Positions 3,433 through 64,000 of a stretch of DNA of 64,000 nucleotides are shown here, piece by piece. Under the pieces are notes generated by a model. That model was not told where the DNA came from, made no database searches, and was given only the letters and a program-made list of their open reading frames with translations. The translations under genes were made by a program, and so were the position numbers. This stretch comes from an uncultured virus (IMG/VR IMGVR_UViG_3300032770_000008). Taxonomy: Duplodnaviria; Heunggongvirae; Uroviricota; Caudoviricetes. Numbering within the stretch: the stretch's first letter is position 1; every line of letters starts with the position of its first letter. The stretch lies in IMG/VR virus record IMGVR_UViG_3300032770_000008. One strand, written 5' to 3'.

Positions 3433-3649
3433 CCGCAGCGTCGGGCTTCGGCAAGCGCGACTTCTAGAGATAGCGCCCCACGAGCGACGCGAACGGGCAA
3501 GCTTACAAAGCTGCTGCCCGGCGGTCGCTTTTTTTCGGCGCCGGCAGGGAACCTGATCGCGCGCGGACGCCGGCTGGTCGGACCAGCAGCCTACTACCGC
3601 CTACGGGGCGAGGCCCGGCGGAAGGTCGGGGCGCCGGAATTTGACGACC

Positions 3650-3790
3650 GTTATCATTTATTTATTTTTCTCTTTATATATAAAGAGATAAGTTAAATAA
3701 TGAATGTGTGCACCTTCCCCGGCTCCGCCCCAGGCTTCTGGTGAAGGGTTAATTACCCCTACCCCCCAAAATAACCCTCCCATCGTTTCC
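3650..3790. other. AT-rich tract with perfect 20-bp palindrome; candidate replication origin
   Basis: TCTCTTTATATATAAAGAGA at 3669-3688 inside a nearly all-AT run in an otherwise very GC-rich sequence, about 0.9 kb from the primase-helicase. Confidence 0.45.
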
Positions 3791-3871
3791 CCTGGAACCG
3801 CGAGGGCGACGCGGTCCCATTCACATTCAACTTGCGCAGAGCGTCAATGCCGTGGGAATCTCAGAAGTCCG

Positions 3872-4363
3872 ATGACAAAGAAAATCGCGTATGACCCGAA
3901 CGCCCTCCTATTCCGCTGGAACTACAGGGAAGACGACGGTCTCGTGCGCCTCATCGGGACTGATCCCGAGCTGAAAACAAAAGCTCGATGGTTTCGCTGG
4001 CCCGACGTCCCGGGCGGTTGGGAACAGCGCGAGGAGTGGGCACAGGGCACCGCGAACGCGACGCCCGCCGACAACCGCGTCGGGCTCGTGAGCGGCTGGC
4101 CAGGAGCGGTGCCGGTGTCGCGCGCGCCGGGGCGCCCGAAGAAAGACGTCGCCGACGACGATCGGCCGGTGAGCGTGTCGACGTCGTTGCGACGCGCCGA
4201 GCTGTTCGAGATCATGAAGCTGGCGTCGAGCTCGCGCCAGTCGGTGAGCGAGTGGGTCGCGGCCGTGCTGCGCGATCGCTTGGACAAGGAGCTCGGCGAT
4301 CCGACCGCGCGCGCCGACGTCGCAGCGTGCGCCAGCGGCGCGGATGTGGAGGCCCGTGGCTGA
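3872..4363 (+). CDS. Hypothetical protein with C-terminal ribbon-helix-helix domain
   Basis: ATG at 3872; 'GRPKK' followed by 'SVSTSLRRAELFEIMKLA...SVSEWVAAVL'. Confidence 0.5.
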   Translation: MTKKIAYDPNALLFRWNYREDDGLVRLIGTDPELKTKARWFRWPDVPGGWEQREEWAQGTANATPADNRVGLVSGWPGAVPVSRAPGRPKKDVADDDRPVSVSTSLRRAELFEIMKLASSSRQSVSEWVAAVLRDRLDKELGDPTARADVAACASGADVEARG

Positions 4364-4617
4364 TCTGACGGACAAGAGCGTGCTGCGGCCGTCGATGATC
4401 GCCGGCGCCCGGATCGCCGCGGGACGCGGCGCCGAGCGGACGCATCGGCAGATCGGTCGCGAGCTCGAGCCGATCGCGCGATTTGGTTACGCGCTTTCGC
4501 TCGCGATCGCGATCTCGTTGCCGACGCACGAGCGACGCGCGAACGCGATCGCCAACGCGATCGTGCTCGCTGGCGCGCTCTTGGATGGCGAGACGATCTA
4601 CGAAGCGGCGTGATCGC

Positions 4618-9295: not shown

Positions 9296-10322
9296 CCCCG
9301 CGTCAGCACGATCATGGCGCCGAGCACGATCGCCGCGACGCCCTGCGCGACGACGAGCCAGCGCAGGAGGATCCGGATCACCGACTCGCGGCGCGGCCGC
9401 GGCGCCGTGACGGCGTCGTCATCCGGCGCGCCCTCGGCGCTCCACGCCGCGGTGTCGCTCGCGAGCTCCCGCGCATGCGCGTCGTGGCAGCGCGGACAGC
9501 GCGGCCGCTCGCCGAGGATCGTCGTGCCGCAGTCGATACAGCTCGTGACCGTCATGGAGTGGCGACCTCATATTTGGGATTGCGGCGGCCGCAGCGGTTC
9601 GGCGGGCGCGGGATAGGTGATAGGCCCGCGAAGCGGCGCTCGCCGCGCACGCATTCCCACACGAGCGTCTGCGATACGTCGAAGCGATCGGCGATCTCTT
9701 GCAGGGAGAGATCGCCGAGCGCGTAGAGCTCGCGGATACGCGCGATTGCGATGTCGTCGACCGGGGGAACCCAATCGGCGTGCGTGATGTAGAGCTGCGC
9801 GGTCGTGAGCAGGATGATCGTCGCGCCGACGCGGCCGATCTCGACGAATTTTCCCCGGACGCGGATCGGCGGGCGTTGTCGAAAGTTACCGACTCTCACC
9901 GCAACGCCTCCTGGGCCGCCGCGATGAAGCGGCGGAGCTCGCGCGGCGTGATCCACGCGCTGGCAGACGCGTCGGGGCTGCCCGTGATCGCGAGGTAGCT
10001 CGGTCCGCGGGGGCCGAAGTTCTCGAAGAGGATCTTGCGATTGGAGAGTGCGCGGATGCGACGCTTGACGCGGGGCTTGACCTTCACGCGGCCTCCGCCA
10101 GGCCGAGCCGATCCGCGCAGCCGTCATGGATCGCATGCCATGTGTGGATCTTCATCTCCCGGAGTACGCCGAGCACGGAGTGGCGGCGCTTCTGCCGGTA
10201 CCACCCGGGCCGATTCGGATCGGGCTGATCCCAGAGCATGCGCCGGGCTTCGGCGAAGCTCATGCCGAGCCGATGCTCCTCGTAGGTCGCGCCGCAGACA
10301 CATTGCGGCGGAGTTCGCTTCG

Positions 10323-10937
10323 TCATGGGGCCTCTCCGGCGAACGCGGCGGCCATTCCGCGGCGCGATTGGTCGATGGCTTCTTCCTCGACGATCGAGAC
10401 GAGCCGACTCCACGAGCTGATCGAATGCGCGGTCCATGGCACGGGCTCGCCCGTGTTGTGGGGCGTTCGCCAGAACACGCCGCACCGGCCCGGCCAGCGC
10501 TCGAGCCACGCGCGGACGTGTGGCGCGTGATCGTCGACGAAGACGTCGGCCTCGAAATCGTGCTTCTCGTTCTCGTGGTGAACGTGGTCGGCGGGGATCG
10601 CGAAGTGATAACAGAGCCAGTCGGTGCGTTCCTGCTGCCAGGAGGCACTCCCAGGCCACGGAGATGTGACGACGTGGACGTCGCCGAGCTCGCGCAGCTG
10701 GCGTACGCCGGCGATCGCGCCCGGGTAGACGTCGAGCGTCGAGCAGAAGCTGTCCGACGTGCGAATCGCTTCCTTCACGCGCCGGGTCTCGTCGTACGAG
10801 AGCGCGAGCGCCTTGCAGAAATCGAAGCGATCAACATCGGTCTCGCGCCAGCGCTTGCCGGTGACCTGTTCGATGACGCGGAGGGCACCGGCGGTGAAGT
10901 TGCTCAGGAGTCCATCGCTGTCGAGTGCGATCCGCAT
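10323..10937 (-). CDS. HAD-family 5'(3')-deoxyribonucleotidase (NT5C-like)
   Basis: N-terminal 'IALDSDGLL' DxD motif, 'VVTSP', 'DVFVDD'. Confidence 0.8.
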   Translation of the reverse strand: MRIALDSDGLLSNFTAGALRVIEQVTGKRWRETDVDRFDFCKALALSYDETRRVKEAIRTSDSFCSTLDVYPGAIAGVRQLRELGDVHVVTSPWPGSASWQQERTDWLCYHFAIPADHVHHENEKHDFEADVFVDDHAPHVRAWLERWPGRCGVFWRTPHNTGEPVPWTAHSISSWSRLVSIVEEEAIDQSRRGMAAAFAGEAP

Positions 10938-11154
10938 TAGTCCGTCTCCCCGACGCCGTATACGGTCGATCCGTCGAGCACGAGCGCGTCGATCTCGGTG
11001 CAGCCCGGATCGATGTCGATCGCGAACAGGCCGCCGACCATCGTTTCGCCGTCGTCGTTTTGGACGCGGACGATCACTTCCATGTCGGGTGTCGCCTCGG
11101 CCTTGCCGGCGAGCTCGGTGAGCTTGGTGAACAGATCGCGGAACGTCATTGTCT

Positions 11155-11565
11155 TCACGCCGCTCTCCTCATCGTGAACGCCTCGATCACGGCGGTCTGG
11201 AACGTGGGCGTGCGCGTCTCGCCGAACGTCTCGGGTGTCAGGATCCCCGGCATCGGCGGGCGCGTTAGATCGATCTGCGTCTTGCCGAGTTCTCCGGCGC
11301 GCTTCCACTCGAGGATCATTCCGCGCGAGAACTCGCCGCCGACCGCGACGACGCCGTCCGCGCGCTCAAGCGCGGCGATCGCGTCGCGCAGTCCGCGCTC
11401 GCGATCGATCATCGTCTCGGCGTACGGGATCCACGGCGCGGCGATGACGATGTTGGGGATCGCGTCGATGAGCGCGCGTAGCCAGAGTTTGGCTGAGGCG
11501 ACGTTCATGGCGCGCGTGGTGCCGATCGAGACGGGGTGGAGTAGGAAGAAGATGGGGAGCGTCAC
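11155..11565 (-). CDS. Nucleoside 2-deoxyribosyltransferase-like fold protein (DUF4406-like)
   Basis: 'LERADGVVAVGGEFSRGMILE' pattern. Confidence 0.5.
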   Translation of the reverse strand: MTLPIFFLLHPVSIGTTRAMNVASAKLWLRALIDAIPNIVIAAPWIPYAETMIDRERGLRDAIAALERADGVVAVGGEFSRGMILEWKRAGELGKTQIDLTRPPMPGILTPETFGETRTPTFQTAVIEAFTMRRAA

Positions 11566-13535
11566 GCGGCTTCCTTTCGTAGATCGTTCGAAGTCACGGT
11601 GCAGAGCGCCGTCGTATCGCCGTACGATGTGCCCTTCTTCAAATCGACGCGCGACGGCACGCGCAGCTCGGGCGCGACCGAGACCATCACCTCGGCCATG
11701 TGCCGCGCGCGATCGTCGGAATCGTCCGAATAGTCGAACTCGTCGTGAACGGTGAGCTGGAGTGGATAGCCCTCGCGATCGAGCGCGATGAGCGCGAGCT
11801 TGGTCTGGCGCGCGGCCGCGTACTGGATGAGCTTGTTGAGCGCCTTGTGCGATTGCATAATGGCGCCGTTACTATCGAGCTCGAAGTGGATCCGCCGTCC
11901 GTCGATGCCGCGGATGTACTTCTTGTCCTCGCCCGCGCGCTGGCACTTGCGCATGAGCGCCTTGACGTACGGCACGCCGCGATCGAACTTGTCGATAATC
12001 GCCTGCGCCTCGGGACCGGCGGCCTCGTACTCGTAGCCGGTTCGATCGTTCACCTTCATGACCGTCGGCTTCTTGAGTTTCTTTGCCATTTTGCCGCCGC
12101 CCATCCCGTACCCCCGCCCCAGGTAGATCTCTTTCAGGTCGTCGCGTTTCTCGTCGGGCACGAGATCGACGAGCATCTGGTAGCAGTCGTAGAGCGGATC
12201 GCGGCGGAGGATGTCGCCGGCCTGGCGAGCGCCCGGCAGCCGGCACTCCTCGCTGTAGTGGATGATCCAGCGCGGCTCTTGCTGGCTGTAATCGCCCGAG
12301 TACCAGTTCTTTCCCTCGTCGGCGACGTACACCTTGCGCCAGCGTTTCTGGATTTCCTTCGAGCGCTTCATCGACGCCTGCACGTTCGGGTGCTTCGCCG
12401 ACACGCGTCCGAAGCGAGCTCCCTCCGCCTCGTCCTCGTCTTCGGCGTCGTCGCTGTCGCTCGCGAGCTGTTTGAATGTCGGGTGCAAGCGATCTTTGAT
12501 CAGGTGCTTGCGGACGCCGCCGACGTACGTGCCGAGCAGCTTGTCGAACTCGCGGCCGGAGATGATCGCGCGCGCGACGGGATCATCGATCTGTTGGAGC
12601 CACAGCTTCTGAATCGTCGGCACCATCTTGTGCGTGCCGCCGTGCTCTTTCATCGGCACGTGGATCCCGCGCTTGCGCAGGGCCGGTGCGATTTCGGCGC
12701 CCTTCGCCAGCGAGTTGATGCGAATTCCGGTGAGGTGATGGATTTGATCGATGTAGTTCTGGCGGCGCTCTTTCGCCCATGCCTCGATGCGATCGAGCTC
12801 ATCGAGATCGACGCGGATCCCCAGGCGCGTCATGCGCACCAGCGCCGGGGTCACCGCGCACTCCATTTCGTAGGTCGTCCACAGGCCGAGCTCTTCGATC
12901 TCTTTCTCCTGGCGCCGGAGTAGCGCGAGCGGTGCGCGCACGTCCTGCTCGCCGTACGCGCCGACCGCGCCGGCGTGCAGGCGCCACAGGCCCTTCTTCG
13001 GATCGACGCCCCACACCTTGGCGTGCTCGCGCAGGGCGCGCTCGTCCTTGCCAGGCAGGCCGCGCCGCGCGCAGACGGCGTCTATGTTGTAGTTGGTCTG
13101 GAGCTCGTCGATCACGGGCTCGGCAACCTGCGTGTCGCGCACCTTCTGACGCACGCCGATCGGGACCTTGTATTCCCAGAACCAGTCGAGATCGTACGGC
13201 GCGTAGTTGAAGACGGCCTCGCCGTTGAAGCACGCGACCTGATCGCGGAGGTACCGCCAGACTTGCTCTTCGTCGAGGTTGCCGCCGCCCTCGTGGCGGA
13301 TCGGCAGGTAGTACGCGGGACCATCTTCGATCGCGAACGCGATGCCGCAGACGTAGCCGCCGCGCCGCACGCCGGGGCCGAGTTTGTGGAGATCATCGTC
13401 GCGGCATTCAACGTCGAGACAGATGCGCTTGGCGTCGGACCAGCTCGGCAGCGTTGCGAGGTTTGGCGCGGTCCATGTGATCGCCGGCTCGAAGAGCGGG
13501 CGTTGCAGCCAGCCAGGATCTCTCGCGGAGATCAC
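11562..13535 (-). CDS. polA: DNA polymerase family A (3'-5' exonuclease plus polymerase)
   Basis: Exo I 'LDVE', Exo II 'NYAPYD', motif A 'DYSQQEPR', motif B 'K..YLGRGYGMG', motif C 'TVHDE'. Confidence 0.93.
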   Translation of the reverse strand: MISARDPGWLQRPLFEPAITWTAPNLATLPSWSDAKRICLDVECRDDDLHKLGPGVRRGGYVCGIAFAIEDGPAYYLPIRHEGGGNLDEEQVWRYLRDQVACFNGEAVFNYAPYDLDWFWEYKVPIGVRQKVRDTQVAEPVIDELQTNYNIDAVCARRGLPGKDERALREHAKVWGVDPKKGLWRLHAGAVGAYGEQDVRAPLALLRRQEKEIEELGLWTTYEMECAVTPALVRMTRLGIRVDLDELDRIEAWAKERRQNYIDQIHHLTGIRINSLAKGAEIAPALRKRGIHVPMKEHGGTHKMVPTIQKLWLQQIDDPVARAIISGREFDKLLGTYVGGVRKHLIKDRLHPTFKQLASDSDDAEDEDEAEGARFGRVSAKHPNVQASMKRSKEIQKRWRKVYVADEGKNWYSGDYSQQEPRWIIHYSEECRLPGARQAGDILRRDPLYDCYQMLVDLVPDEKRDDLKEIYLGRGYGMGGGKMAKKLKKPTVMKVNDRTGYEYEAAGPEAQAIIDKFDRGVPYVKALMRKCQRAGEDKKYIRGIDGRRIHFELDSNGAIMQSHKALNKLIQYAAARQTKLALIALDREGYPLQLTVHDEFDYSDDSDDRARHMAEVMVSVAPELRVPSRVDLKKGTSYGDTTALCTVTSNDLRKEAA

Positions 13536-14003
13536 GCCTTGACCTCGCGCGCGTGCTCGGGCAGCGCCTTGGGATGCAGATCGTCCCCGAGCTTGGCGTG
13601 CTCGGGGCAGTAGTCGTACATCTTCGTGGGGCCGCGCGACGGTCCTGCGGCGACGAAGCCGTGCCGCCAGCCGCGCAGCGCGGCGAGCTGACGGGTCTGA
13701 TCAGCGCGCGGCAGATCGAGCGCGATCCGCTCGCCGCAGGCGGGGGCATCGCACGCGATCACGTAGACGTGCAGGACGCTCATGACGGCTCCCCGCGATC
13801 TTCGATGACGACGACGTCATGCCCGTCATGTGTTTCGAGTCGGACGAGGCGCCTCATCATCTCTTGCGGCGGCTCGAGCGCGCAGAGCGTTTCGATCCAG
13901 TTCGCGCGGTAGGTGTTCATCAAGATGAGGAGCCGGCGCTCGGTGTCCTTCACGTCGCCACGGTTCCAGGCGGCGATCGCGCCGTTCGCGAGATCGATCG
14001 CGC

Positions 14004-14516
14004 TCATTCGCCGGCGCTCCCCCACGCGATCGCCGGTGCGACCTCGCGCAGGATCTCTCGCGCGCGCTCGCGCGCGTTGCCCGTCCACGATCCGGCATTG
14101 CGCCCGCTTGGGTGCGGTAGCGATACGAGGTGCATCTCACCGTTGGTCCGGGACACGATCTCGTGCGTGAAGAAGGGCTGCCCGTAACCGAACGCGTCGG
14201 CGACCTTGCGGCCGAGCATCACGATCGTTCGCCATGGCGCCGATGGATCGGCGACGAGCAGCGCGGCGCGGCGCCGCGCTTCCCTCATCGACCACGATCC
14301 GTTGCACAGATTGCCGCGGTGGAGCGCGAGGTACTGGTGCTGCGGCAGACCGAGGATCCGGCGCAGGTTGTAACCAGCGCAACCGACGGGGTAGCAGTAG
14401 AGCGCGTAGGACGGATCGCCGTGCCCGGCGAAGTAGGGATTCGCCTCGCCGACCAGCAGCACGCTCGGCGGCGCGAGCTCGCCGCGGATCTCCTCGCGCG
14501 CGACGCAGTCGATCAT
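14004..14516 (-). CDS. Uracil-DNA glycosylase-like protein
   Basis: 'LLVGEANP', 'VMLGRKVA', 'LPHPSGRN' UDG-superfamily motifs. Confidence 0.65.
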   Translation of the reverse strand: MIDCVAREEIRGELAPPSVLLVGEANPYFAGHGDPSYALYCYPVGCAGYNLRRILGLPQHQYLALHRGNLCNGSWSMREARRRAALLVADPSAPWRTIVMLGRKVADAFGYGQPFFTHEIVSRTNGEMHLVSLPHPSGRNAGSWTGNARERAREILREVAPAIAWGSAGE

Positions 14517-14881
14517 GCCGCCCTCCGCCGACCGGCCTTATCGAATCCCGGCCGGAACCGCTGCCCGTCGCTCGCGTTGCACGGGATGCACAGCGCGCGC
14601 ATCGCGACGCCGGCCTCGTATTCCTTCCAGTACCGCGCGTACCGGCGGTGCTGGTTCAGGCTCTCGTGCTGCCAGCCGATTCCGTTCTGGTGATCGACTT
14701 CGAGGTTCTCGTGACCCACTTGCTTGCCACAGCCGGCACAGATCCCATCGGGTGAGAGTCGCTTGATGAGATCGAGGCGGCGCTTGTGGGCGTACTTCGC
14801 TCTCTCGCGCGTGCGCTCGTTCGCGGTCATGCGCGCGCGGCGCGCGCGCGAGCGGAGTGTCGAGGGGTTGACAGCGATCAT
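14513..14881 (-). CDS. Small HNH endonuclease
   Basis: CxxC...LEVDH...LCxxCN. Confidence 0.65.
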   Translation of the reverse strand: MIAVNPSTLRSRARRARMTANERTRERAKYAHKRRLDLIKRLSPDGICAGCGKQVGHENLEVDHQNGIGWQHESLNQHRRYARYWKEYEAGVAMRALCIPCNASDGQRFRPGFDKAGRRRAA

Positions 14882-15993
14882 GCGGCCCCTTTGTAATCAA
14901 CGAAGATGTTTTGTGCCGCCTTCCAGATACGCCCGTCGCGAATATTCCGTACAGTGGCCGGATCGACATTGTATCGCTGTGCTACCACCGTCATGCGTTC
15001 TCCAGCATTGATCGCAGCCAAAATTTCTTTGGCAAGCTCAAGTGTTAGTTTGCGCGCGTGCCATTTCTTCTTTCCTCGCCAATCAACTGGAATGGACTGT
15101 GCCTTATACAAACCATGTTTAGATCGCACAAGCTCCTGATTGCGCGTGAGCAAATGAAGGGCTGAGTACGCAGTAGACCTGTTTATGCTTAAGAACCGAA
15201 TAATTTCACCCGCCGAAAATTCGGCGTTTGAGTTTTCCATGAACAGGGCGAGAATGCGCGAACGCAGCGACAGCGAAGCGTTTGCTGCTGTATCACTTGG
15301 TGAAAATCGCGCTTTGACCGTTTCCGGTAGACAATAGCGATGTCGTCCGAGCCGTACTTGCAATAATTTTCCGTCTTTGATTAGTTGTTTTAGTGCTGTG
15401 ATCGGCACATGCCCATTGCCGAGGCGCTCGCTGATTTCGCTGATTGACAGGAACAGCCCAGGAGAGAATAAAGCGAGTATGTTGTCCATTGTGATCATCG
15501 TCGAAGATCTGTGTGGAGCAACAGCTACATATGGAGCTGCATTCTGCTTACGCTTAGCTGTGCGAACGCGGTGACAACAGGCACAAATGATTTCGCATTT
15601 TGCGATCTCTTCTAGAATCAGTTGTAGCTTGTAGCCTTGTGAGACCATTTCAGCGATCGATTTGCTCTTGGGTCCGATATGATCAAAATCCATCGCGACC
15701 GGCGGAAAGCGGTTCCCACAGTCCAGACACGGAACGTCCTTTATTTTGTCGATGGCTATTTTGGCATTAACCTTGTTCTGTCGATCGCGTTCCTGTTTTT
15801 TTGATCTGTTGTTTGCGTTGTAGGAACGCCGGTAATCTACAAGCCGTTCAAAGTTGTCCTTCGCGTACGCGCCGCGACATTCCCAACAGTCTCCACGTTG
15901 CGTTGTTACGCCAGAGCGCAACACGAAAGATGCAAAGCGATCGATCGGTTTTTCTTGGCCGCACTTCTTGCAAGTCTTTAATGCTATTGTCAT
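14878..15993 (-). CDS. HNH-type endonuclease with multiple C-terminal HTH domains (low-GC insert)
   Basis: CKKC/CWEC zinc knuckle, 'PCLDCG..FPPVAMDFDH...CEIICACCHRVRT'; markedly AT-richer than flanks. Confidence 0.7.
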   Translation of the reverse strand: MTIALKTCKKCGQEKPIDRFASFVLRSGVTTQRGDCWECRGAYAKDNFERLVDYRRSYNANNRSKKQERDRQNKVNAKIAIDKIKDVPCLDCGNRFPPVAMDFDHIGPKSKSIAEMVSQGYKLQLILEEIAKCEIICACCHRVRTAKRKQNAAPYVAVAPHRSSTMITMDNILALFSPGLFLSISEISERLGNGHVPITALKQLIKDGKLLQVRLGRHRYCLPETVKARFSPSDTAANASLSLRSRILALFMENSNAEFSAGEIIRFLSINRSTAYSALHLLTRNQELVRSKHGLYKAQSIPVDWRGKKKWHARKLTLELAKEILAAINAGERMTVVAQRYNVDPATVRNIRDGRIWKAAQNIFVDYKGAA

Positions 15994-19311: not shown

Positions 19312-20263
19312 GCGATCGACGCTCGCACGCAGGTCTGACGGTGAGTCTCGGCGGTCAATCTGCCGAGCAGATGCAATCACAGAAGGACAGGTCATCGCAG
19401 GCGAAGTCGCCTTCTACGAAATCGTCGCGTGCGCCGTCAACGTCGAAACGAGCGCGATCGTCACAGCGCGCGATGACGCACGGACAGATCGTGTCGTGAT
19501 CGCACGCTGACGATTCGGATCTGTCCACAACGCGATTGCGGGGCGCGTCGTCGATCGATCCACAGGACGCACAAGTTGTCCACAGAACCCTTTGGCCTGC
19601 GGATCGCGCGAGATCGCGCGCGGCCTAACTTCGCCTGACCGAGATCGCGCGAGTGAGGCAGCGCTCGCACGTGATCGTCTCGTCCGCGCGCGCTGGCGCG
19701 TCGAGCTCGATCAAGTCGAGGCACTCAGCGCACCACGCGTAGCGCGCGCACGTCGCGCACGCATTCCACACCGCGCCGTGGACGCAGCGCGGTTGGGGGA
19801 CGTAGCTCGGTACGCGGCGGCGGGACACCGAGCGAGCGTAGTGGACCGGTGTGACAGTTACACGAACTAGATCCCGCGCGTCCACGGGCCGACGATCTGC
19901 GGCGCTTCCTCGCGGCGCACGGCGCGTACGACGCCCGACCACGGCCACTGCTTGACTCGGTGCCGGAACGACTCGAACACGAGCTCGCAGCCGCTGTCGC
20001 CGGCGAGCAGCGTGATCGGGGCCTTCTCGGTGATGATCGCGGTGAAGGAGGGGGCGCCGTCGATGCGGCGCGCGCCGGGCGCCTCCCAATCGACGCGCGG
20101 CATGCCGTTGTCGAGCGATGGGATCGCGTCGGCGAGGAGACGCTCGGCGAGCTTGAGCAGATCGGTAGCTTGTCCGTCGCGACGCAGTTGCTTGATGTAG
20201 GCGCGGGCGACGGCGAGCTCGGATTCGGTCATGATGGTGTCCTCTCTTCGTTGCGCTCGACCG

Positions 20264-24611: not shown

Positions 24612-26387
24612 TCACCCGAATAGCTCCTGTGCCGCGCGCACGCCGCCGGGCACCTTCACCACGTAGCCCATCTCCGCGAACCGCGCGAGCGCGGTCGACG
24701 TGTCGCCGCTGCACGCGTATGGCTTGATCGCGTCGGCGCGCGCGATCGTGTTCGGGTACACCTCGCACACGTTGCTGAGGATTGTCCGCTCCATCTGCGA
24801 GAGCTTGCCGGCGCCGTTCAGGAGTCGCGCGCGGAGCGCGTCGCCGGTTGGTAGCTTCTCGAAGTCGCCTAGGATATCGAGGGCGCTGTCTGTCGCGTGG
24901 AGCTTCCCGTCGAGCGCCTTATCGATGTGTCCGGCCTCGATCAGTCGCGCGATCGCGGTCGACGTGTCGCCGCTCCGCGCGTAGCCGGCGAAGAGGAGGG
25001 TCTGCTTTCGAGTGAGGCCGCTTGGGTGCTGCGCGATCGCGGTTAAGATGCGCCGCTCGATCGGCTTGAGCTCGCCGGTGTCACGTGGCTTGGTCATGGC
25101 CGATCGCGCGCCCTGGCCGGCGTCGAGATCGTGCATGCCGCGCGGCGGTTGAATGCCGGTACCTGCGAACGGCGGTTTCGCTGGCGGCGGTGCCGGCGTG
25201 CCCGCCAGCTGGATCGCTTTGCGTAGCTCATCCGCCGCCTGCTCGAGCCGCGCGATCGGTGCCGCGAACGTGGCGCGCACGTCCTCGATCGTCTTCTCGA
25301 CGCGCGCGGTGGTGATGTCGGCGAGCCGCCCGACGCTCTCGACGAGCTTCTCGGCGCGGGTGAGCTGGCCGTCCTTCAGGACGGGTTTCTCGACGATCTT
25401 CTTGTTTGCTGGCGCGCCCGGCGCGCCCGGCGGTTTCTTCGCGAGCTCGCGCTCGAGCTCGGCGACGCGCAGCTTGAGCGCTTTCGGATCGTTGGCCTTC
25501 TGCCGCTCGGCGGCCTCGGCCATCGTCTTGCCAAGTCGGGCGATGTCGATCGGCGCTAGGATCTTAGGCTCGCGTTTCTTTTCGCCAGCCTTGGGCGTTG
25601 CGCCCGAGTCGAACGTGTGGCGCTGACGGATCGCGACGCGCTTGAACAGATGCTGCGACGGATTCCACGCCCACGCTTCGCCGCGCGGCAGCGAGGGCAG
25701 CGAGGTCATCATCTCCGCGGCGAGCTTCGCGTCGGCATTGCGGCGCACCCACTTGTCGATCGCGTCGAGATCGAGCGGATGGCTGCACCCCATCGCGATC
25801 AGCATGTCGGCTTGCGAAAGCACGTTCTTGTTGAGCACGCTCGCGCGCTGCGTGATGAGCGTGCAGCCGATGCCCTTCTTGCGGCCGCGCCGGACAATGT
25901 CGTCGGTCGCGCCGCACGTCTTCATCTCGCCGCCGAATGGTTGCTGCGGTGCGAAAATGTCGGCCTCGTCGAGGAAGAGGTGCATCGCCTCGCGGTTCTT
26001 GCGGTAAAGGGTCTCCAGAAAGTCGCCGACGAACCGGAGCTCCTCGCCCTTAGTCATCGTCTCGGTGCACACGATTGCGGAGAAGCGCTCGCGCACGATC
26101 GCCTCGGCGAGTACCGCGCCGCCACCGGGCTCGAGCTGGATGTCGCCGTGATCGCCGCCGAATACCGCGATCGGGTAGCCGGTCGATCGCCCGTCGGGGC
26201 TCGATCGGAGGCCGTAGTGCGCGTCGGTCGGATCGACGATCACGACGAGTTGTCCAGCGTCGAGCAGTTCTTCGGCTTCGACAGCGGCTGTGTACGACTT
26301 GCCCTTGCCTTTTTGCGCGAGGATCGCCTGCGTTGAGGTGACGAAGTCGGCGCCGAGAATGAGATCGTCGGAGATGCGGAGCTTCAT
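24612..26387 (-). CDS. HerA/FtsK-like ATPase (DUF87-type) with C-terminal winged helices
   Basis: Walker A 'AQKGKGKS', 'VDPT', Walker B 'LDEAD', 'GRKKGIG..LITQR'. Confidence 0.8.
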   Translation of the reverse strand: MKLRISDDLILGADFVTSTQAILAQKGKGKSYTAAVEAEELLDAGQLVVIVDPTDAHYGLRSSPDGRSTGYPIAVFGGDHGDIQLEPGGGAVLAEAIVRERFSAIVCTETMTKGEELRFVGDFLETLYRKNREAMHLFLDEADIFAPQQPFGGEMKTCGATDDIVRRGRKKGIGCTLITQRASVLNKNVLSQADMLIAMGCSHPLDLDAIDKWVRRNADAKLAAEMMTSLPSLPRGEAWAWNPSQHLFKRVAIRQRHTFDSGATPKAGEKKREPKILAPIDIARLGKTMAEAAERQKANDPKALKLRVAELERELAKKPPGAPGAPANKKIVEKPVLKDGQLTRAEKLVESVGRLADITTARVEKTIEDVRATFAAPIARLEQAADELRKAIQLAGTPAPPPAKPPFAGTGIQPPRGMHDLDAGQGARSAMTKPRDTGELKPIERRILTAIAQHPSGLTRKQTLLFAGYARSGDTSTAIARLIEAGHIDKALDGKLHATDSALDILGDFEKLPTGDALRARLLNGAGKLSQMERTILSNVCEVYPNTIARADAIKPYACSGDTSTALARFAEMGYVVKVPGGVRAAQELFG

Positions 26388-26610
26388 GGCGCTGTTCCTT
26401 GCTCGAGGATCCGCGCGGCCGTTCCGTCCTCGCCGATGTCGCGGAGCTCGATGGCGGTTCCGGGATTGACGTCGCGGCGTGTTTGTGGCGCGACCAGTGA
26501 CCGATACGACTTGAGTGCCTCGATGTACGAGTGGTGTCGGGACCAGAGGCGCTGCTCGCCGTCGAGATGCGAGATGCGGACCTCGTAGCGGCAGCCGCGG
26601 AATGGCTTGG

Positions 26611-26958
26611 TCATCGGTCCTCGAAGGCTTTGTCGAGCGCGTGCTCGCGCTGCTCTGCGCGCAGGCGATCGATCTCGTCGAGCAACGCGAGCACGACGCT
26701 CGGCTGCGCCGCGACGATGTAGTCGAGCACCTCGGGCCGCGCGTGCAAATCGGGATGGCCGTCGCTCGGCTGCCTGACCGCGCACAGTACGTCGCCATCG
26801 CCGTTGCAGCCGATCCGGCGGAAGCTGTTGCTCGTCTGGAGCTCCCAGCGGGATCGAAGCGCGCTCGGGATGCGTTCGGTGATCTCGCGGAGCTTGTCGC
26901 GCCAGGGAAGCGTCACAGGCCGGCTCCGATTCCGACGATCGCGACTTTTTGGAACCAC
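26611..26958 (-). CDS. Ead/Ea22-like phage protein
   Basis: 'YIVAAQPSVVLALLDEIDRLR' signature. Confidence 0.6.
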   Translation of the reverse strand: MVPKSRDRRNRSRPVTLPWRDKLREITERIPSALRSRWELQTSNSFRRIGCNGDGDVLCAVRQPSDGHPDLHARPEVLDYIVAAQPSVVLALLDEIDRLRAEQREHALDKAFEDR

Positions 26959-30099: not shown

Positions 30100-31227
30100 C
30101 TAAATAACACGAGAGACTTTTCCTTCATCGTTGGATTGCTCCAACTCCAGAGCGCGCTGGCCGCGCGCGAGGACGTTGATCGCCGCGTTGTGGTCGCGAT
30201 CGATCATCAGTCCACAGTTTGGGCAGTCGTGAGTCCGATCGGCGAGTGTCTTATCGACGATCTCATCACACCGGCTGCACAACTTCGACGTGTTTCTGGG
30301 ATCGATCGGCACCAGATGCTTCCCAGCTTCTTCCGCTTTGGAAGCGAGGCACCGGAGGAGGAGTCCCCAGGACGCGTCGCAAAACGACTTCGCGAACATT
30401 CCGCGGGCGAGTCCGCGGACGTTCAGTTTCTCGTGGGCAATCAGGTCGAAGCGATCGACGATTTTCTTGGCCTCCTTCCGGGCGTGGTCGAGCCGCTGGT
30501 TGACGATCTTCGCGTGCGACTGCGCGACGAGGATCCGCGCGCGCTCACGATTCCGCGATCCTTTCTTCGCGCGAGCAAGTTGCCGCTGGCGATCGGCGAG
30601 CTCAGCCTCGGCGCGGCGAAGGAAACGATGATTTTCGATCTTCTCGCCGGTCGAGAGCGTCGCGAGCGCTTCGAGGCCGAGATCGATCCCGACGCTGGAC
30701 GTGATCGCGACCTTCGGCGGAGCGGGGCCGAGATCGCATTGGATCGTGACCCACCACTTCCCACAGGCGTCGCGCCGTACGATCGCGTTCTTGATCGTTC
30801 CCGTGATCGGTCGGTGGAGGTTCATCTTCACGTGGCCGAGCTTTGGGATGTGGACGCGATCTTTCTTGACCTTCACGGTGCCGAGGGCGAACGAATCGTA
30901 GCGTCGATGGGAGCGGAATCGCGGAAAGCCGGGCACCTCGCCCGATCGACAGCGCCGAAAGAACGCCTGGAAGGCGAGGTCGACGCGACGGAGAGCGGAT
31001 CGCTGGACTTCGACGGGCACGGCGGCCCAGGCCGGATCGGCACCGCGCAGCTCGGTGAGCTGCGCGGTTTGGTCGAAGCGTGTGATCGACTTCCGCTGCG
31101 ACTTCCAGGCAATGATCCGCTGCTCGAGGGCCGCGTTGCCGAGCGAGCAGCATTGCCGACGCCAGCCGTCGAGAACGCATTCTTGCGAAGTGTTTGGGTG
31201 GAGTCGGAACTTGAAAGAGCGCCGCAC
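30100..31227 (-). mobile_element. tnpB: IS200/IS605-family RNA-guided endonuclease TnpB, no adjacent tnpA (IS1341-like)
   Basis: N-terminal 'SFKFRLHP', RuvC-I 'GIDLG', RuvC-II 'IAHEKL', zinc finger CSRC/CPNC, RuvC-III 'DRDHNAAIN'. Confidence 0.93.
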
Positions 31228-40295: not shown

Positions 40296-40744
40296 AGCGA
40301 GATCCGCCGGAACGAGGCCGTCTCGCTGTAATAACCGTTGCTCGATCCGTACCAGCGGATCGTGACGTAGCCCTTGGCGGTCGCGAGTCGGTAGAACGTC
40401 CAGGTGAAGGAATCGGCGTACTCGTCTTTGGGAGAATCGGAGTTCGTGCTCTCCTCCGCCAGCGCGATCGGCGCGCCGACCAGATCTTCTAGATCGCCGA
40501 TGACATCCTCGATGGTGCACACCGCGCAGCAGTCTGGCTCGTAGTACATCTGCCAGCGCTCGCCCGTGACGGCCTCGAAGTCGATCGTCTCGTCGCCGTT
40601 TCGCGTGACCGACTTCATCGTTTTGCCGAGCAGCTCTTCTAGACCCGACAGCGGGGCGATCTGCGCGCGGAGTGCGGCGGCTTCGGCGGTTCGTCCCTCC
40701 AGTTCCGCATCTGCGGCGACTGCCTTGATGTCTTCGCGGTTCAT
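40292..40744 (-). CDS. Conserved phage hypothetical protein
   Basis: 'DCC....EDVIGDL.DL.G.PI..AEE...TWTFYRLAT.KG.V.IRW.G.SNGYYSE'. Confidence 0.65.
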   Translation of the reverse strand: MNREDIKAVAADAELEGRTAEAAALRAQIAPLSGLEELLGKTMKSVTRNGDETIDFEAVTGERWQMYYEPDCCAVCTIEDVIGDLEDLVGAPIALAEESTNSDSPKDEYADSFTWTFYRLATAKGYVTIRWYGSSNGYYSETASFRRISL

Positions 40745-41527
40745 GGTGACGGCGCCTCCTTGACGCCCACGATCTTCGCGTACTGGATCGCGGCGCGCGC
40801 GGTCGGCAGCCACGCCAGGAGCGGCTCGGGCATGCCGACCGACAGCACGTTCAAGACCCACTCGATTTCCGCGGCACGGCAGCGCGCGTGCCAATGGGCC
40901 GCCGGATCGCCGGTCCACATCCCGCTCCGCTCGGCCGTCTGCCAGAGCGCGACGATCTCGGCGGGCGTCTTGCCGCGGCACGCCTCGAAGCCCTCGATCG
41001 AGCCGCGCAGCATCTCGGCGACGTAGTCGCCGGCGCGCTGGCCGTAGTCGGCGCGCGCGGCCTCGATGCCGGTCTCGATGATCGCGTTCAGGAGGTCTTG
41101 ATAGGTCATCGACATTCGGCGCTCCTGACGTGCAGCGTGGTCCCCACGATCCGATCGACGCGGACGTCGTACGCCACGCGGCCGTCGATCCAGTGCAGCG
41201 TTACGACGTCGCCTACGCACGGTGCGCGATCGGCGGGGAAGCGCTCGAAGCCGAACAGTTCTGGCGCGTCGTTCGGGAAGTGTTCGATCACCTTGTACTC
41301 GATCAGGATCATCGGATGCCCGCTCCCCGCGTCGCCGCTGGATCGAGCTCGATGTACGCCGAGCAGGTGACGTGGATACCGCGCGTGCGTGGATCGCCGG
41401 CAGTCGCGTTGCCCACGCAGGCGGTCGCGAAGCCGCGCCCGCGGCGGTGGCAGGCGGTGCCGATCGCGAGGCGCGCGCCGATGGTGAGGGGGATGGCTGG
41501 CTTCATTTGGCGTGTCTTGTCCTTTCG

Positions 41528-41601
41528 TGAACCGAGAGGGATTCGAACCCCCGACCTGACGCTTATAAGGCGTCCGCTCTTACCAACTGAGCTATCGGTT
41601 C
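41528..41601 (-). tRNA. tRNA-Ile, anticodon UAU
   Basis: Cloverleaf GAACCGA-TA-GCTC agttggtaa GAGC-G-GACGC cttataa GCGTC-aggtc-GGGGG ttcgaat CCCTC-TCGGTTC-A; CCA not encoded. Confidence 0.9.
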
Positions 41602-59533: not shown

Positions 59534-59974
59534 GACGCGGGTCCCTTGTCGACGGTGAGCTCGCCGCGCGCGGTGCGTCGCACGCACTCCCACAACATGA
59601 TCGTCATCTGGAGGAAGTTGTCCGGCGCCTCCGCGGCGGTCGGATCGACCTCGATGTAATTGGTGAGCGCGATCTTGCGCTGTCCCTCGTCGGTCTCGAT
59701 CCACATCTCCTTGATTCGCATTTAGGTCCCCTCGCGCATGCGCGCGTAGAGCGCCGCGCGCTCCTTGTCGGTCAGCTTGCTCGTCAGCCGCGCGATCGCG
59801 CCGTCGGTCGCCGACTCGATGAGTTGCGCCACGTACGTAGTGACCAGCTCGATCCGGCGCTCGCGCGCGTCGTCTCCGCGCGTCGCGACGATCTCGTCGA
59901 CGATCCGCGCGGCGAGATCTCGGATCCGTAGCTGCCGATCCATGGTAGCGTCGCCTCGCTTGATCGCCTGAGAA

Positions 59975-60241
59975 TCAAGTTTTGTGTTTCTGTTCATACT
60001 TGCTCGGTGAGTCAACTGCCGAGACACGACGGCCTCCGCTTGCTGTTGTCAAAGGCAGCTCGGCCTGATCGCCACCGACGACGGGCGGAACGGGCGCCGC
60101 GGGCGGGACCGCGGCGGCGTTGCCGAGCGCTCGGATCCAATCCGCGATCGGCTGCGCGCTCCGCCGCGCGGCGCGCTTCCAGTTCGCGAACTCGCGCGCC
60201 GTGAGCCGGATCTGAAAGGGGTGAGATCTCTTCGCGGGCAC
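59975..60241 (-). CDS. Ribbon-helix-helix protein divergent from the cas operon
   Basis: 'FQIRLTAREFANWKRAARRSAQPIADWIR'. Confidence 0.55.
   Translation of the reverse strand: MPAKRSHPFQIRLTAREFANWKRAARRSAQPIADWIRALGNAAAVPPAAPVPPVVGGDQAELPLTTASGGRRVSAVDSPSKYEQKHKT
59990..60025 (+). repeat. Orphan variant CRISPR repeat
   Basis: CTGTTCATACTTGCTCGGTGAGTCAACTGCCGAGAC shares TGCTCGG and ACTGCCGAGAC with the array repeat at the same offsets. Confidence 0.7.
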
Positions 60242-60249
60242 GTCATTCG

Positions 60250-60278
60250 CTCTTAGCGCGACGTAATTACGTTGTCAA
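60250..60278 (-). promoter_or_regulatory. Promoter TTGACA-N17-TAAGAG with 12-bp palindromic operator ACGTAATTACGT
   Basis: Palindrome 60261-60272 lies in the spacer; the RHH start follows at 60241. Confidence 0.55.
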
Positions 60279-60313
60279 TCTCCGAATGATCATGCTATGA
60301 GAGATCTCTACCC

Positions 60314-60556
60314 GTGATTTCAGCCTTCCTTTTCCAGGGCACGCTCCACGCCGTCCACGTCGTCGCTCGTTCCGGGCTCACCAAGATCGCGGTGACCGCG
60401 CTGTGCGCGGCCGCCGGCGACGCCGGCGACGGGATCTACCAGGTGCCGACGTGGGCGTTCGACGGCCGCACTTCCTACGCGACCGCGACGGCGTGCGGTG
60501 AATGTGGCAAGCGGCTGCGCGCCATGATGACGGCGCCGAAGGGAGATGGATCGTGA
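60314..60556 (+). CDS. Small hypothetical protein upstream of the Cas effector
   Basis: 80-aa ORF with H, C and CxxC residues. Confidence 0.35.
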   Translation: MISAFLFQGTLHAVHVVARSGLTKIAVTALCAAAGDAGDGIYQVPTWAFDGRTSYATATACGECGKRLRAMMTAPKGDGS

Positions 60557-60627
60557 ACGAGACCTACGGGTCGATCGCGATCTGGCTCGTCATCATCGAA
60601 CTCTGTTTCCGCTGATCAAAGGATCCC

Positions 60628-62595
60628 ATGAAGCGCAAGACCTCCGACGTCCCGACCCGGATCTACTCCTACCGCTGCCTGCCGCCTCTCACCGAGGCCG
60701 CACGCGTCGAGGATCAGTTCCGTCTCGCTCACCAGTACAAAAACGCGCTCGTCAAGATCGAGCTCGACCTGCGCGAGCGGTTTCGCGACGTCCAGCTCAC
60801 GGTGCCCCAGGTAGCGGCGGCTCTCTTGGCCTACGAGGACGCCGACGCGGCCGTCGAGAGCGCGATCGAAGATCTGCGCGCGGCCAAATCGGGCACGGCC
60901 AACCCCGATCTCGCCGCTCACCGGCTGCGGCTCGAGGCGGCCAAGGAGCTCCGCGCGCTGCGCGGAAGCGAGCTCCGCGACGCCAAGCGCGATCACGACG
61001 AGGTGTTGCGGCCCGGATACGAGGACGCCCGGAAAGGGGCGCACGCCGAAATGCTCGCGGCCCGCGCCGACTTCTCGCGCCGCGGCCTACGCCACGGCAC
61101 GTACGTGCGGATCGAGGACGCCGTCCAGCAGGCCGCGCGATCGACGAAGCGGCCCCTGCACTTTGAGCGCTACGACGGATCCGGCTCGATCGGCACGCAG
61201 CTCGTCGGCCGCGATGGACCCGAGGGCGTCCGCGGCCTGACGCTCTCCGAGCTGCACTCGTGCGTGGACACACGGCTGCGCGTGGCGGCGCTGCCGTGCG
61301 CCGGCGATGTCGTCGCGATGCCCCCGTGGGGCGGATTCGGCTCGGAAGACGTCTTCTGGAACATGCGTCGCGGCGATCGCCGGCGCGCGGCACGCGTGCA
61401 CATGTGGCTGCGCGTTGGGAGCAATCCCGATCGGTCGCCGATCTTCGCGGAGTTTCCGATCACGATGCACCGCCCGCTGCCGAAGGACGCGATCATCAAG
61501 TGGGCGTACGTCGTGCGCAAGAGGATCGGCCCGCACCTCGAGTGGCGGTTCCAGGTCACGATCGAGAGCAAGACGTTCTGCGCGCCGACCGCCGCGTTCG
61601 GCGAGGGCACCTGCGCGATCGACCTGGGCTGGCGCTGGAAGCTCGACGACGAGGGACAGTCCGTCGCGCTGCGCGCCGGCTATCTCGTCGACGACCAGGG
61701 GCGCGAGCGCGAGCTCGTCGTGCCCGAGAAGCTGTGGCGGCAGATGCCCAAGGTGTACGACCTCGCGAAAATCCGCGACCAAAACCTCGAGCGCGCGCAG
61801 CTGGCGCTCTCCGAATGGATCGCCGATCGGGGCGAGATCCCGCCAGAGTGGCAGGCCGCCGAGGAAGACGGTCGACCGAGCATGGCGGATCGGCTGCGGG
61901 GCTACGCGCAGTGGCGCGCGGCGCGCAAGCTCCAGGCATTCGTCGATCGCTGGACCGAGCGCCGGGTGCCCGGCGACGCGGCGATCTACGACCAGATCCA
62001 GGCGTGGGCGCGGCAAGATCGCCACCTCCAGGCGTGGAGCGAGCACCAGCGCGACCGGCTGATCGCGCACCGGCGCGAGGTGTGGCGCGTGATCGCCGCC
62101 GAGATCGCGCGGACGTACTCGACGATCCTGATCGAGGACGGCCGCAACGCGAACCAGACGATGCGCCTGCCGGAGATCGAGGGCTGGGAGCGGCCCGCGC
62201 CCGAAGACGGCGATCCGTCGGACGGGCGCGACCAGCGGCGGACGAACCGCCTGGTCGCCCCCGGCGAGCTCCGCGACGCGATCGTCAAGGCGGCCCACAA
62301 GACCGGCGCGAAGATCGAAGTCGAGCGCAGCGCGGGAACGACGAAGGAATGCGCGCGCTGCGGCCACACGCAGGAGCACGTCGACTTCCGCGCGCAGATC
62401 ACGTATCGCTGCGAGGGCTGCGGGGCGATCGACGATCAGGACGCCAACGCGTGCCGGAACCTGCTCAAGCGACACGGGATCGCGGGCGGCCCGGTGCCGC
62501 CGCGCGCGCCCAAGGTGCTCGCGCCGGCGAAGAGGCCGCCGGAGCTCGGCAATCACGGAGCGTCACACGCGGCAGAGACGTTCGCCGCGCCGTAG
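60628..62595 (+). CDS. cas12m: Type V CRISPR effector, Cas12m (V-U1)-like
   Basis: Motifs colinear with Cas12m as recalled: 'QFRLAHQYKNALV', long coiled-coil REC, 'RYDGSGSIGTQL', 'PITMHRPLP', RuvC-I 'AIDLGWR', RuvC-II 'ILIEDG', 'APGELR', zinc finger CARC/CEGC, RuvC-III 'DQDANA'; CRISPR array 63 nt downstream. Confidence 0.85.
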   Translation: MKRKTSDVPTRIYSYRCLPPLTEAARVEDQFRLAHQYKNALVKIELDLRERFRDVQLTVPQVAAALLAYEDADAAVESAIEDLRAAKSGTANPDLAAHRLRLEAAKELRALRGSELRDAKRDHDEVLRPGYEDARKGAHAEMLAARADFSRRGLRHGTYVRIEDAVQQAARSTKRPLHFERYDGSGSIGTQLVGRDGPEGVRGLTLSELHSCVDTRLRVAALPCAGDVVAMPPWGGFGSEDVFWNMRRGDRRRAARVHMWLRVGSNPDRSPIFAEFPITMHRPLPKDAIIKWAYVVRKRIGPHLEWRFQVTIESKTFCAPTAAFGEGTCAIDLGWRWKLDDEGQSVALRAGYLVDDQGRERELVVPEKLWRQMPKVYDLAKIRDQNLERAQLALSEWIADRGEIPPEWQAAEEDGRPSMADRLRGYAQWRAARKLQAFVDRWTERRVPGDAAIYDQIQAWARQDRHLQAWSEHQRDRLIAHRREVWRVIAAEIARTYSTILIEDGRNANQTMRLPEIEGWERPAPEDGDPSDGRDQRRTNRLVAPGELRDAIVKAAHKTGAKIEVERSAGTTKECARCGHTQEHVDFRAQITYRCEGCGAIDDQDANACRNLLKRHGIAGGPVPPRAPKVLAPAKRPPELGNHGASHAAETFAAP

Positions 62596-62658
62596 CGCGG
62601 CAGGTGCTCGCGATCGGAGCTGTATGATCGCGGCGTGACAACTGAATAGGATACTACT

Positions 62659-63495
62659 GTGATCGTGACTGCTCGGCAGGCTGACTGCCGAGACAAGGTG
62701 ATGGCGTTCGCCGTGGAGGTCAACTTCCGCGAGTGATCGTGACTGCTCGGCAGGCTGACTGCCGAGACCGGCGAACTGCTCGGGCGCCGCGTACGCTGGC
62801 GTTCGTGATCGTGACTGCTCGGCAGGCTGACTGCCGAGACGCATCGATGGTTCCGGTGTCGCGAAGCAGGAGCAAGGTGATCGTGACTGCTCGGCAGGCT
62901 GACTGCCGAGACTCCAGTTTCGCGTTGCTGACGCCCGTGGCGACGAAGCCGTGATCGTGACTGCTCGGCAGGCTGACTGCCGAGACTATCCTGGCCGAAC
63001 GGGCGGCCCTCGTATCGATCCCGTGATCGTGACTGCTCGGCAGGCTGACTGCCGAGACAAACACCAAGCTGGCTAGAATTCGATTCTTAGGGGCGTGATC
63101 GTGACTGCTCGGCAGGCTGACTGCCGAGACTTCGGCGGCTTCGCGGCAAGGTCCCTGGCCGCTTTCGGTGATCGTGACTGCTCGGCAGGCTGACTGCCGA
63201 GACGGCGATCCATGTTAGCGCACGGTCGACGAGCCCAGGCGTGATCGTGACTGCTCGGCAGGCTGACTGCCGAGACGCAAGAACGGCTTGCCGCGCCGCG
63301 GGGTCTCGGCGGCGAGTGATCGTGACTGCTCGGCAGGCTGACTGCCGAGACCCCTGGGGACCCTCGAGCACAAGAACCGTGTCGAGTGATCGTGACTGCT
63401 CGGCAGGCTGACTGCCGAGACGCGTCTTGGAGGGGTAGGAATCCTCGTCGAGAGACATTGTGATCGTGACTGCTCGGCAGGCTGACTGCCGAGAC
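62659..63495 (+). CRISPR. CRISPR array: 12 identical 36-nt repeats GTGATCGTGACTGCTCGGCAGGCTGACTGCCGAGAC and 11 spacers of 34-39 nt
   Basis: Repeats start at 62659, 62733, 62805, 62877, 62951, 63023, 63095, 63168, 63241, 63316, 63386, 63460; 8-bp hairpin CTCGGCAG/CTGCCGAG plus AC at the 3' end. Confidence 0.98.
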
Positions 63496-63710
63496 TTGCC
63501 AGGTCCGTCGCCCCCGTTCTCGGCGAGCTGACTGCCGAAACCGGCCGCCGGCCGTGCGTGTGGTGCTCATGATCGTACTTGTTCGGTGAGTTGATCGCCG
63601 AGACAGTGGGACCTTCCGCAGATCGTAGTTGCTCGGCGAACTGACTGCCGAGACGCAGAGTGGTCGATTGCACGTAAATCGCACTTGCTCGGCGTATTGA
63701 CTGCCGAGAC
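63496..63710 (+). CRISPR. Trailer of four variant repeats with short spacers
   Basis: Variant repeats end at 63541, 63604, 63654 and 63710; spacers between them are 27, 14 and 20 nt. Confidence 0.8.
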
Positions 63711-64000
63711 CCGAGCTGGCGAACGTTTTTCGCTAGTCCTACGCGATCGCGTCCTGGCCGTGCAGCCAGAGCGATCGCACGTACTCGCTCGGCCAGCCGG
63801 CGAGGATCATCTCCCAGCACGCGCGTATCCGATCGTAGTACGCCTGCGCCGCATTCTCCTCGCGCGCCGTGCGGGGGCGCGACAGCCACGGTTCGGCGCG
63901 GTGCTCCACAATCGCGAGCTCATCGCTCGAGCGGAGCTCGATCCGATCGCGGCCGCGCAAGAGCGGGACGATGTCGATCGTCACCGGGCCTCGACGAGCG

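Follow-up and report, generated by a model that had tools for sequence, protein, structure and literature searches.

A divergent, probably stand-alone type V-M (Cas12m) CRISPR module on a phage-like element

The 64,000-nt stretch of the uncultured virus record IMGVR_UViG_3300032770_000008 (IMG/VR) that was analysed here, referred to below as the window, belongs to a 119,516-bp contig, about 55 kb of which lie outside it. Close to its right end the window carries a cas12m gene followed on the same strand by a CRISPR array. The locus is genuine and belongs to the known Cas12m type, being a divergent member of this family rather than a new kind of system. It is probable (roughly 0.65), by analogy with characterised relatives, that it constitutes a stand-alone type V-M module of a phage-like element and acts by RNA-guided binding and silencing of competing DNA. 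An earlier interpretation made from the letters of the DNA without database searches (the sequence-only reading) had described the locus as a minimal Cas12m-like system with an apparently intact catalytic triad, and the coordinates and counts given there, namely a locus at 60628-63495 with an open reading frame (ORF) of 655 aa, 12 repeats and 11 spacers, proved to be correct (Table 1).

The encoded protein is a full-length Cas12m of type V-M (formerly V-U1), rather than a plain TnpB. In a phmmer search against solved structures it matched the PDB entry 23vw, 'CRISPR-associated DNA-binding protein Cas12m', with E=3.9e-59 over residues 13-614; further matches were Cas12m2 (8hio and 8hhl, 1e-25), GoCas12m (8pm4, 2.9e-25) and UnCas12m4a (23vu), while the TnpB and Cas12f structures were matched in this sequence search only at the zinc ribbon, with E values of at least 4e-4. 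The PADLOC model Cas12u1, which bears the old family name, was aligned at positions 3-529 of 533 (E=3.6e-88). Pfam detected only the C-terminal Cas12f1-like TNB domain, and the NCBIfam TnpB models covered only residues 437-615, with scores of 25-41 bits versus cut-offs of 100-425. An AlphaFold2 model built on 32 homologues had a mean predicted local distance difference test score (pLDDT) of 80, and Foldseek placed Cas12m structures at all of ranks 1-4 (E values from 1e-31 to 4e-25, template modelling scores of 0.46-0.56), with Cas12f (1e-11) and TnpB (about 1e-8) at lower ranks. The window also encodes a plain TnpB, the likeness of which to Cas12m extends over only 47 zinc-ribbon residues. Since Cas12m matches span the whole protein and TnpB sequence matches at most its last third, the protein does not cluster with plain TnpBs, and the Cas12m-like assignment of the sequence-only reading was borne out by the phmmer search, the hidden Markov model search with PADLOC and the structure prediction combined with Foldseek. 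A separate observation concerns residues 506-532, located right after the catalytic Glu, which have a pLDDT below 50 in the model, yet contain five residues (G519, W520, P525, G528 and P530) that are invariant in the 32 closest homologues; this segment may be a lid-like element.

The array starts 63 bases past the stop codon of cas12m, and its repeat, GTGATCGTGACTGCTCGGCAGGCTGACTGCCGAGAC, is identical in 12 of 12 copies, with 70-75 nt from one repeat start to the next and spacers of 34-39 nt that are all unique. The 36-nt repeat with a 3' hairpin noted earlier was confirmed as an 8-bp stem (-15.9 kcal/mol, z -3.4) supported by covariation: across 10 related arrays the pairing is present in 98.8% of cells, five of the eight pairs show compensatory changes on both sides, and the covariation score was reached by 0 of 500 shuffles. 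Sliding the hairpin partner by one to three columns reduced pairing in these arrays to 23-44%. A covariance model of the clade repeat, searched against both strands of the window, matched each of the 12 array repeats on the plus strand with 46.4 bits (E=2.3e-10), and revealed no reverse-strand copy near the locus that could represent a trans-activating CRISPR RNA (tracrRNA) or anti-repeat; the minus-strand matches found there are only 7.6-bit echoes of the hairpin's own palindrome.

The three RuvC motifs of the protein, AIDLGWR (D332), ILIEDG (E503) and DQDANA (D605), align with the motifs AIDLGWR, IVLEEF and DQDYNA of 23vw, and all three acidic residues are invariant in the 32 closest homologues. 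A word-index search returned 129 homologues at E <= 1e-5; among the best 120 of these, 105 were aligned and 15 were set aside for low query coverage (24-89%). The D-E-D state was present in 76 of the 105 aligned homologues, followed by N-G-D (15), N-E-D (4), N-D-D (3), N-A-D (2) and five other states found once each, while pairwise alignment assigned D-E-D to 60 of 79 viral loci identified in IMG/VR. The triad is thus intact, as the sequence-only reading had it, but it is no special feature of this protein, being also already in print as that of Cas12m clades 3 and 4, as described in the accessible part of the paper by Omura et al. (PMC10442227).

A FastTree phylogeny was built from 110 rows. 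To the aligned 105 homologues were added MsCas12m, an H-D-D protein from a Mycobacterium plasmid, the protein of phage Rctr197k, the closest IMG/VR protein and, as the outgroup, the TnpB from the window. The query fell within a 64-row clade with a support of 100, FastTree supports being local values only, and the characterised proteins were placed far outside. Most rows of this clade (45 of 64) are D-E-D; at least three of its lineages, two with N-G-D and one with N-E-D, have exchanged the first Asp for Asn, mostly with loss of the Glu as well. Arrays persist in clade lineages with an altered triad, for example at the locus L001. Such repeated loss of D and E with retention of the arrays shows that catalysis is dispensable in the clade.

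These data bear on the possibility that the protein is a nuclease-active Cas12m, the D-E-D site of which cuts or nicks the target, with the N-G-D and N-E-D sister lineages being its natural dead derivatives. The invariance of the triad among close homologues and its prevalence in a clade without an assayed member are consistent with this view, as is the remark of Omura et al. (PMC10442227) on clades 3 and 4, which 'may facilitate' the hydrolysis of DNA by a two-metal mechanism. However, Bigelyte et al. (2024), who chose eight Cas12m variants, namely four D-E-D, two H-D-D and two N-D-D, report in the available portion of their text that none of them cut double-stranded DNA (dsDNA), the four D-E-D variants included, while a binding signal dependent on the protospacer adjacent motif (PAM) was obtained for six of the eight (PMC11013384). 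The same portion states that the D274A substitution in MsCas12m left the processing of the precursor CRISPR RNA (pre-crRNA) unaffected, and Omura et al. report that Cas12m2 did not regain cutting once its H-D-D triad had been changed to D-E-D (PMC10442227). The closest solved structure, 23vw, is also D-E-D and was deposited as a 'DNA-binding protein', and the losses of D and E within array-bearing lineages point in the same direction. Because D-E-D is the commonest state and the four tested variants that have it did not cut dsDNA, the intact triad is weak evidence for cleavage, and a nuclease-active enzyme appears unlikely. The sequence-only reading had left the choice between a silencer and a cleavage-competent variant; the silencer is favoured, while the case for cleavage built on the triad is undercut by the absence of cutting in the tested D-E-D variants.

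According to the favoured reading, RNA-guided binding and silencing, the array would, by analogy with the family, be transcribed in the direction of cas12m, and Cas12m would bind the 3' hairpin of each repeat and trim the transcript. The resulting CRISPR RNAs (crRNAs) would each consist of a repeat handle and a guide of roughly 17-20 nt, and the complex, if it behaves like its characterised relatives, would bind PAM-flanked dsDNA and block transcription or replication without cutting. The acidic triad would then probably provide a metal-mediated grip on the displaced strand rather than catalysis. The likely role of such a module, which would behave as a cassette without adaptation genes of its own moving between unrelated elements, would be the exclusion of competing phages or plasmids. 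Several points weigh against this interpretation. No protospacer was found for any spacer in the searches described below, and hence no target or PAM; identity between the clade and any tested Cas12m amounts to only about 30%; the retention of D-E-D in 45 clade rows could reflect a catalytic role; the window has no capsid or tail gene, the word 'phage' resting on the replication module and the integrase; and the view ends at the right edge of the window.

Comparison of the spacers with the window itself revealed no self-match, the best alignment comprising 26 of 38 bases. By blastn, the array had five matches among 50,697 phage records, all with E >= 1, and a search against 72,556 plasmid records gave 57 matches with a GC-rich chance look, the best of which (E=2e-4) lies partly over the repeat. 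Local blast searches of the arrays fetched from related loci against the window, and of the window array against the fetched loci, yielded nothing above chance, and exact 24-mers from two of the 11 spacers had 0 matches in IMG/VR. In the reverse complement, spacer 11 (63422-63459) begins with ATG and forms an open frame, MSLDEDSYPSKT; its protospacer may thus cover the start of a gene.

The 34-39-nt spacers of the 12 perfect units look like past products of a Cas1-Cas2 integrase, and the sequence-only reading had attributed their acquisition to the adaptation machinery of the host. An exact-match pattern of the repeat core, run against 32 million genome contigs (185,579 species representatives), gave three lone matches with no array and no Cas12m, and alignment-derived protein patterns gave none in the genome contigs. 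Loading of the spacers by the host is therefore unsupported, since no genome array with the repeat core was seen, and is not refuted either, since the pattern accepted only exact matches.

No match to the Cas1, Cas2 or Cas4 Pfam families was found among the 90 ORFs of the window, which ends 290 nt past the last repeat-like copy, in agreement with the original description of a minimal system with no cas1, cas2 or cas4 nearby; none was found among 139 ORFs beside eight close relatives. The neighbours of cas12m in eight related loci are mostly orphan genes, together with genes for SNF2 and UvrD helicases, a primase-polymerase, an RNA ligase, ParB and Lar. In IMG/VR, 79 distinct viral loci with Cas12m relatives were identified by a profile-pattern scan, and in 56 of these a crude k-mer finder detected at least one array, usually starting 100-300 nt past the gene. 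When 1.84 billion cluster representatives were searched exhaustively with phmmer, 1,302 clusters passed a threshold of E <= 1e-30 and 2,599 one of E <= 1e-10, and a metagenome scan yielded 22 related loci with clearly related repeats, the proteins of the closer ones being 44-59% identical to the query.

The nearest viral relative, located on a 95-kb record devoid of Cas1, has a Cas12m that is 51% identical and carries the N-G-D triad. It shares with the window only Cas12m and a weak SNF2 match, so that the module looks like a cassette moving among large mosaic elements. Several orphan genes are common to the window and the 333-kb contig L084, two of them being located upstream of cas12m in both. 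Related genes have been recorded before: in the phage record Rctr197k (GenBank KX853510) a D-E-D homologue is annotated as 'similar to transposase' beside an annotated 1.5-kb CRISPR, and published work already reports prophages and a myxophage that carry Cas12m. Two side observations were made among the relatives. On the 461-kb metagenome contig L082 there are two Cas12-like effectors, both accompanied by an array of their own, and the repeats of the two arrays differ (3-1682 and 2894-6212 against 9914-14985). The close D-E-D homologues at L081, L086 and L087 have full flanks and no array; at L086 and L087 the gene is closely followed by one or two lone repeat-like copies only.

Alignment of the gene-to-array junction from five loci revealed an invariant block, TGACAAC-GAATA, 9-10 nt ahead of the first repeat. 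The exact 14-mer TGACAACTGAATAG, found once in the window versus 0.05 occurrences expected by chance, is also present just ahead of the first repeat in six further loci (L083, L084, L085, L091, L092 and L095), and at L092 it precedes both arrays; the proteins of the loci sharing it are only about 50-60% identical. This motif, which is conserved across the clade, is a candidate promoter or a candidate integration signal. A sigma-70 promoter scan of the region 59600-64000 returned 0 sites. Between the stop codon of cas12m and the motif lies an inverted repeat, CGCGATC...GATCGCG, read from the alignment without statistics, and related loci have a stem of differing sequence at the same place. The conserved motif on the cas12m side and decayed repeat copies at the far end of the array together place the leader next to cas12m.

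This far end comprises four degenerate repeats separated by gaps of 10-27 nt instead of full spacers. The 3' hairpin is retained in three of the four copies, that at 63569 using different bases, and three of the four were matched by the covariance model (25.8-31.7 bits, E from 1.8e-6 to 7.1e-5). These copies, as well as the lone copies at 59990-60025 and 19345-19380 discussed below, had been missed by the sequence-only reading, the account of which otherwise holds for the array proper. Short spacings of 25-60 nt are common in the arrays of relatives (L001, L080, L091, L092 and L093). Since mature Cas12m crRNAs contain only about 17 nt of guide, according to the available part of a preprint (bioRxiv 10.64898/2026.03.26.714355), shortening of the unused 3' portion of a spacer by deletion would be costless in a system without an adaptation module, and the short units could have arisen in this way.

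Erosion of the array tail, the more extensive erosion of arrays in relatives, the occurrence of the gene without an array at L081, L086 and L087, and the failure to find a spacer target could also be expected of a decaying relic, that is, of a cassette that had no adaptation genes when it was captured and is no longer functional. However, the ORF is intact and its third-position GC content of 0.90 is among the highest in the window, the twelve repeats are identical, and both the leader motif and all of the family-invariant residues have been kept; a non-working relic is thus unlikely.

Two lone copies of the repeat occur outside the array. The stronger one, 43 kb away, shares 29 of its 36 bases with the array repeat; it is in the sense orientation within the replication operon and is located just upstream of, or within, the 5' end of the gene encoding the Pam3 gp33-like protein. 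The second, degenerate copy, about 600 nt upstream of cas12m, is antisense to two small minus-strand ORFs and spans their junction. Autoregulatory crRNA-like elements exist in other CRISPR types, and it could be envisaged that Cas12m, the lone repeats and the short-spacer tail form a self-regulatory device, which processes the element's own transcripts or represses its own or host genes. Both lone copies score well above background and keep the base of the hairpin, the stronger one is in the sense orientation in its operon, and lone copies were also found in the relatives L084, L085, L086 and L087. On the other hand, nothing else in the window resembles the 'guides' following the lone copies more closely than chance allows (at most 16 of 20 bases), the nearest viral relative has no lone repeat outside its array, inspection of the related loci revealed none with a lone copy at a matching position, and relics of recombination would look alike. 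A self-regulatory function therefore seems improbable. Little weight is likewise given to a broader conjecture, by which this mostly phage- and megaplasmid-borne clade would still cut or nick DNA via D-E-D, its sister lineages would represent steps from nuclease to binder, and the lone repeats would supply guides or decoys tuning the phage programme.

Nearly all genes of the window are located on the minus strand, and the GC content of the element is 66%. The phage setting proposed by the sequence-only reading was upheld by a phage-type replication module, which includes a family-A DNA polymerase (PolA), a primase, DnaB-like, Dda-like and SNF2 helicases, and proteins similar to Pam3 gp33 and gp34. 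Over 96% of its length, the polymerase shares 44.7% identity with those of Pseudomonas PaMx11-like siphophages, and it is matched by 267 phage records. A search of IMG/VR with the gp34-like protein found no relatives. Other genes of the window encode HNH endonucleases, RuvB, a C5 cytosine methyltransferase, a tyrosine integrase and the plain TnpB. Among the 60 window ORFs tested against PHROGs there was no structural match to capsid, portal or tail proteins, the sole head-and-packaging match being a partial terminase large subunit. 'Phage-like temperate element' is thus the safe wording, as no capsid, portal or tail gene was seen in the window and some 55 kb of the contig lie beyond it. The sole Rfam match in this GC-rich element is a tRNA-Ile(TAT), a reader of the rare AUA codon.

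Two small ORFs precede cas12m. The proximal one, encoding a CxxC protein, may be co-transcribed with cas12m. The product of the divergent one is a possible regulator, its ribbon-helix-helix (NikA-like) hint being weak and below the Pfam cut-off (E=0.0066, 17 bits versus 27). A perfect 12-bp palindrome, ACGTAATTACGT, in the gap between this ORF and the genes on the cas12m side may be an operator. One public DNA run, from a wetland metagenome, contains the stretch, and no RNA run is listed. In a unitig-style contig from that run the first repeat is joined to the last and the whole array is dropped (window 62657-63459), which is read as an assembly collapse of a repeat exceeding the word size and not as biology.

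Table 1. Positions of the Cas12m locus and of other features within the 64,000-nt window
Feature	Position	Strand	Remarks
cas12m gene	60628..62595	+	655 aa; D332/E503/D605 as RuvC triad; zinc-ribbon TNB domain at C terminus (residues 548-612)
Inverted repeat	62609..62632	+	between cas12m stop codon and array
Leader motif	62636..62649	+	9 nt ahead of first repeat; sole copy in window
CRISPR array	62659..63495	+	12 identical 36-nt repeats, 11 spacers
Eroded distal array end	63506..63710	+	four degenerate repeats, 46-63 nt start to start
Degenerate repeats	63506-63541, 63569-63604, 63619-63654, 63675-63710	+
Lone repeat copy	19345..19380	-	35.9 bits, E=1.4e-7
Lone degenerate repeat copy	59990..60025	+	26.2 bits, E=5.5e-5
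Weak repeat-like match	40328-40366	+	16 bits, E=0.027
88-aa ORF	59975..60241	-	divergent from cas12m side; ribbon-helix-helix (NikA-like) hint
Palindrome, 12 bp	60261-60272
80-aa ORF	60314..60556	+	CxxC motif; directly upstream of cas12m; no family match
Partial terminase large subunit	24612-26798
Plain TnpB	30100-31227	-	375 aa; OrfB_IS605 and TNB domains; PHROG transposase E=5e-95
tRNA-Ile(TAT)	41527-41601	-

Among known systems, the query most resembles the D-E-D proteins of type V-M, MsCas12m, TfCas12m and 23vw, with which it shares homology over the full length, the fold and the RuvC motifs (AIDLGWR, xxxE and DQDxNA). The accessible descriptions of D-E-D Cas12m also include a 36-nt repeat ending in GAC, a 3' hairpin and a lack of adaptation genes (PMC11013384; PMC10442227, clades 3 and 4). 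Unlike these proteins of 536-577 aa, which are carried by plasmids, the query is encoded by a phage-like element, is longer and only about 30% identical to them, and belongs to a separate well-supported clade. Li and Ni presented MvCas12m of the myxophage MV-1 as the first phage Cas12m (bioRxiv 10.64898/2026.09.14.751636). As far as the available text of that preprint describes it, MvCas12m is alike in being encoded by a phage genome and in having a D-E-D triad and an adjacent array, with no cas1, cas2 or cas4, no tracrRNA and no spacer targets; compared by description, it differs in size (610 versus 655 aa), in the positions of the triad (D305/E463/D555 versus D332/E503/D605) and in the number of spacers (8 versus 11).

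MmCas12m2 and GoCas12m (8hhl, 8hio and 8pm4) are the best structural matches and provide the working model for RNA-guided binding and silencing, although they are encoded by actinobacterial plasmids, are only 21-26% identical to the query and have an H-D-D triad, in which His replaces the first Asp and Asp replaces the Glu. TnpB, which acts with an omega RNA, shares the ancestral core of RuvC and zinc ribbon, but has only about 375-400 aa and no array. The combination of a single effector and an array without an adaptation module is also known from CasPhi (Cas12j) of huge phages and from viral mini-CRISPR arrays, for which a role in competition between elements is presumed; CasPhi, however, belongs to a Cas12 family different from Cas12m and cuts DNA.

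The locus adds a divergent Cas12m from a clade without a tested member to a family that is already used in base and epigenome editing, and the 79 IMG/VR loci, 60 of them D-E-D, show that Cas12m modules are common on viral contigs. Collapse of arrays during assembly, as in the wetland run, could conceal similar arrays in contig collections. If it were true that the clade cuts DNA, it would offer natural pairs of active and dead enzymes within one lineage. The persistence of arrays in the absence of adaptation genes is a matter on which the conserved leader motif, the short units of the eroded tail and the lone repeat copies have a bearing.

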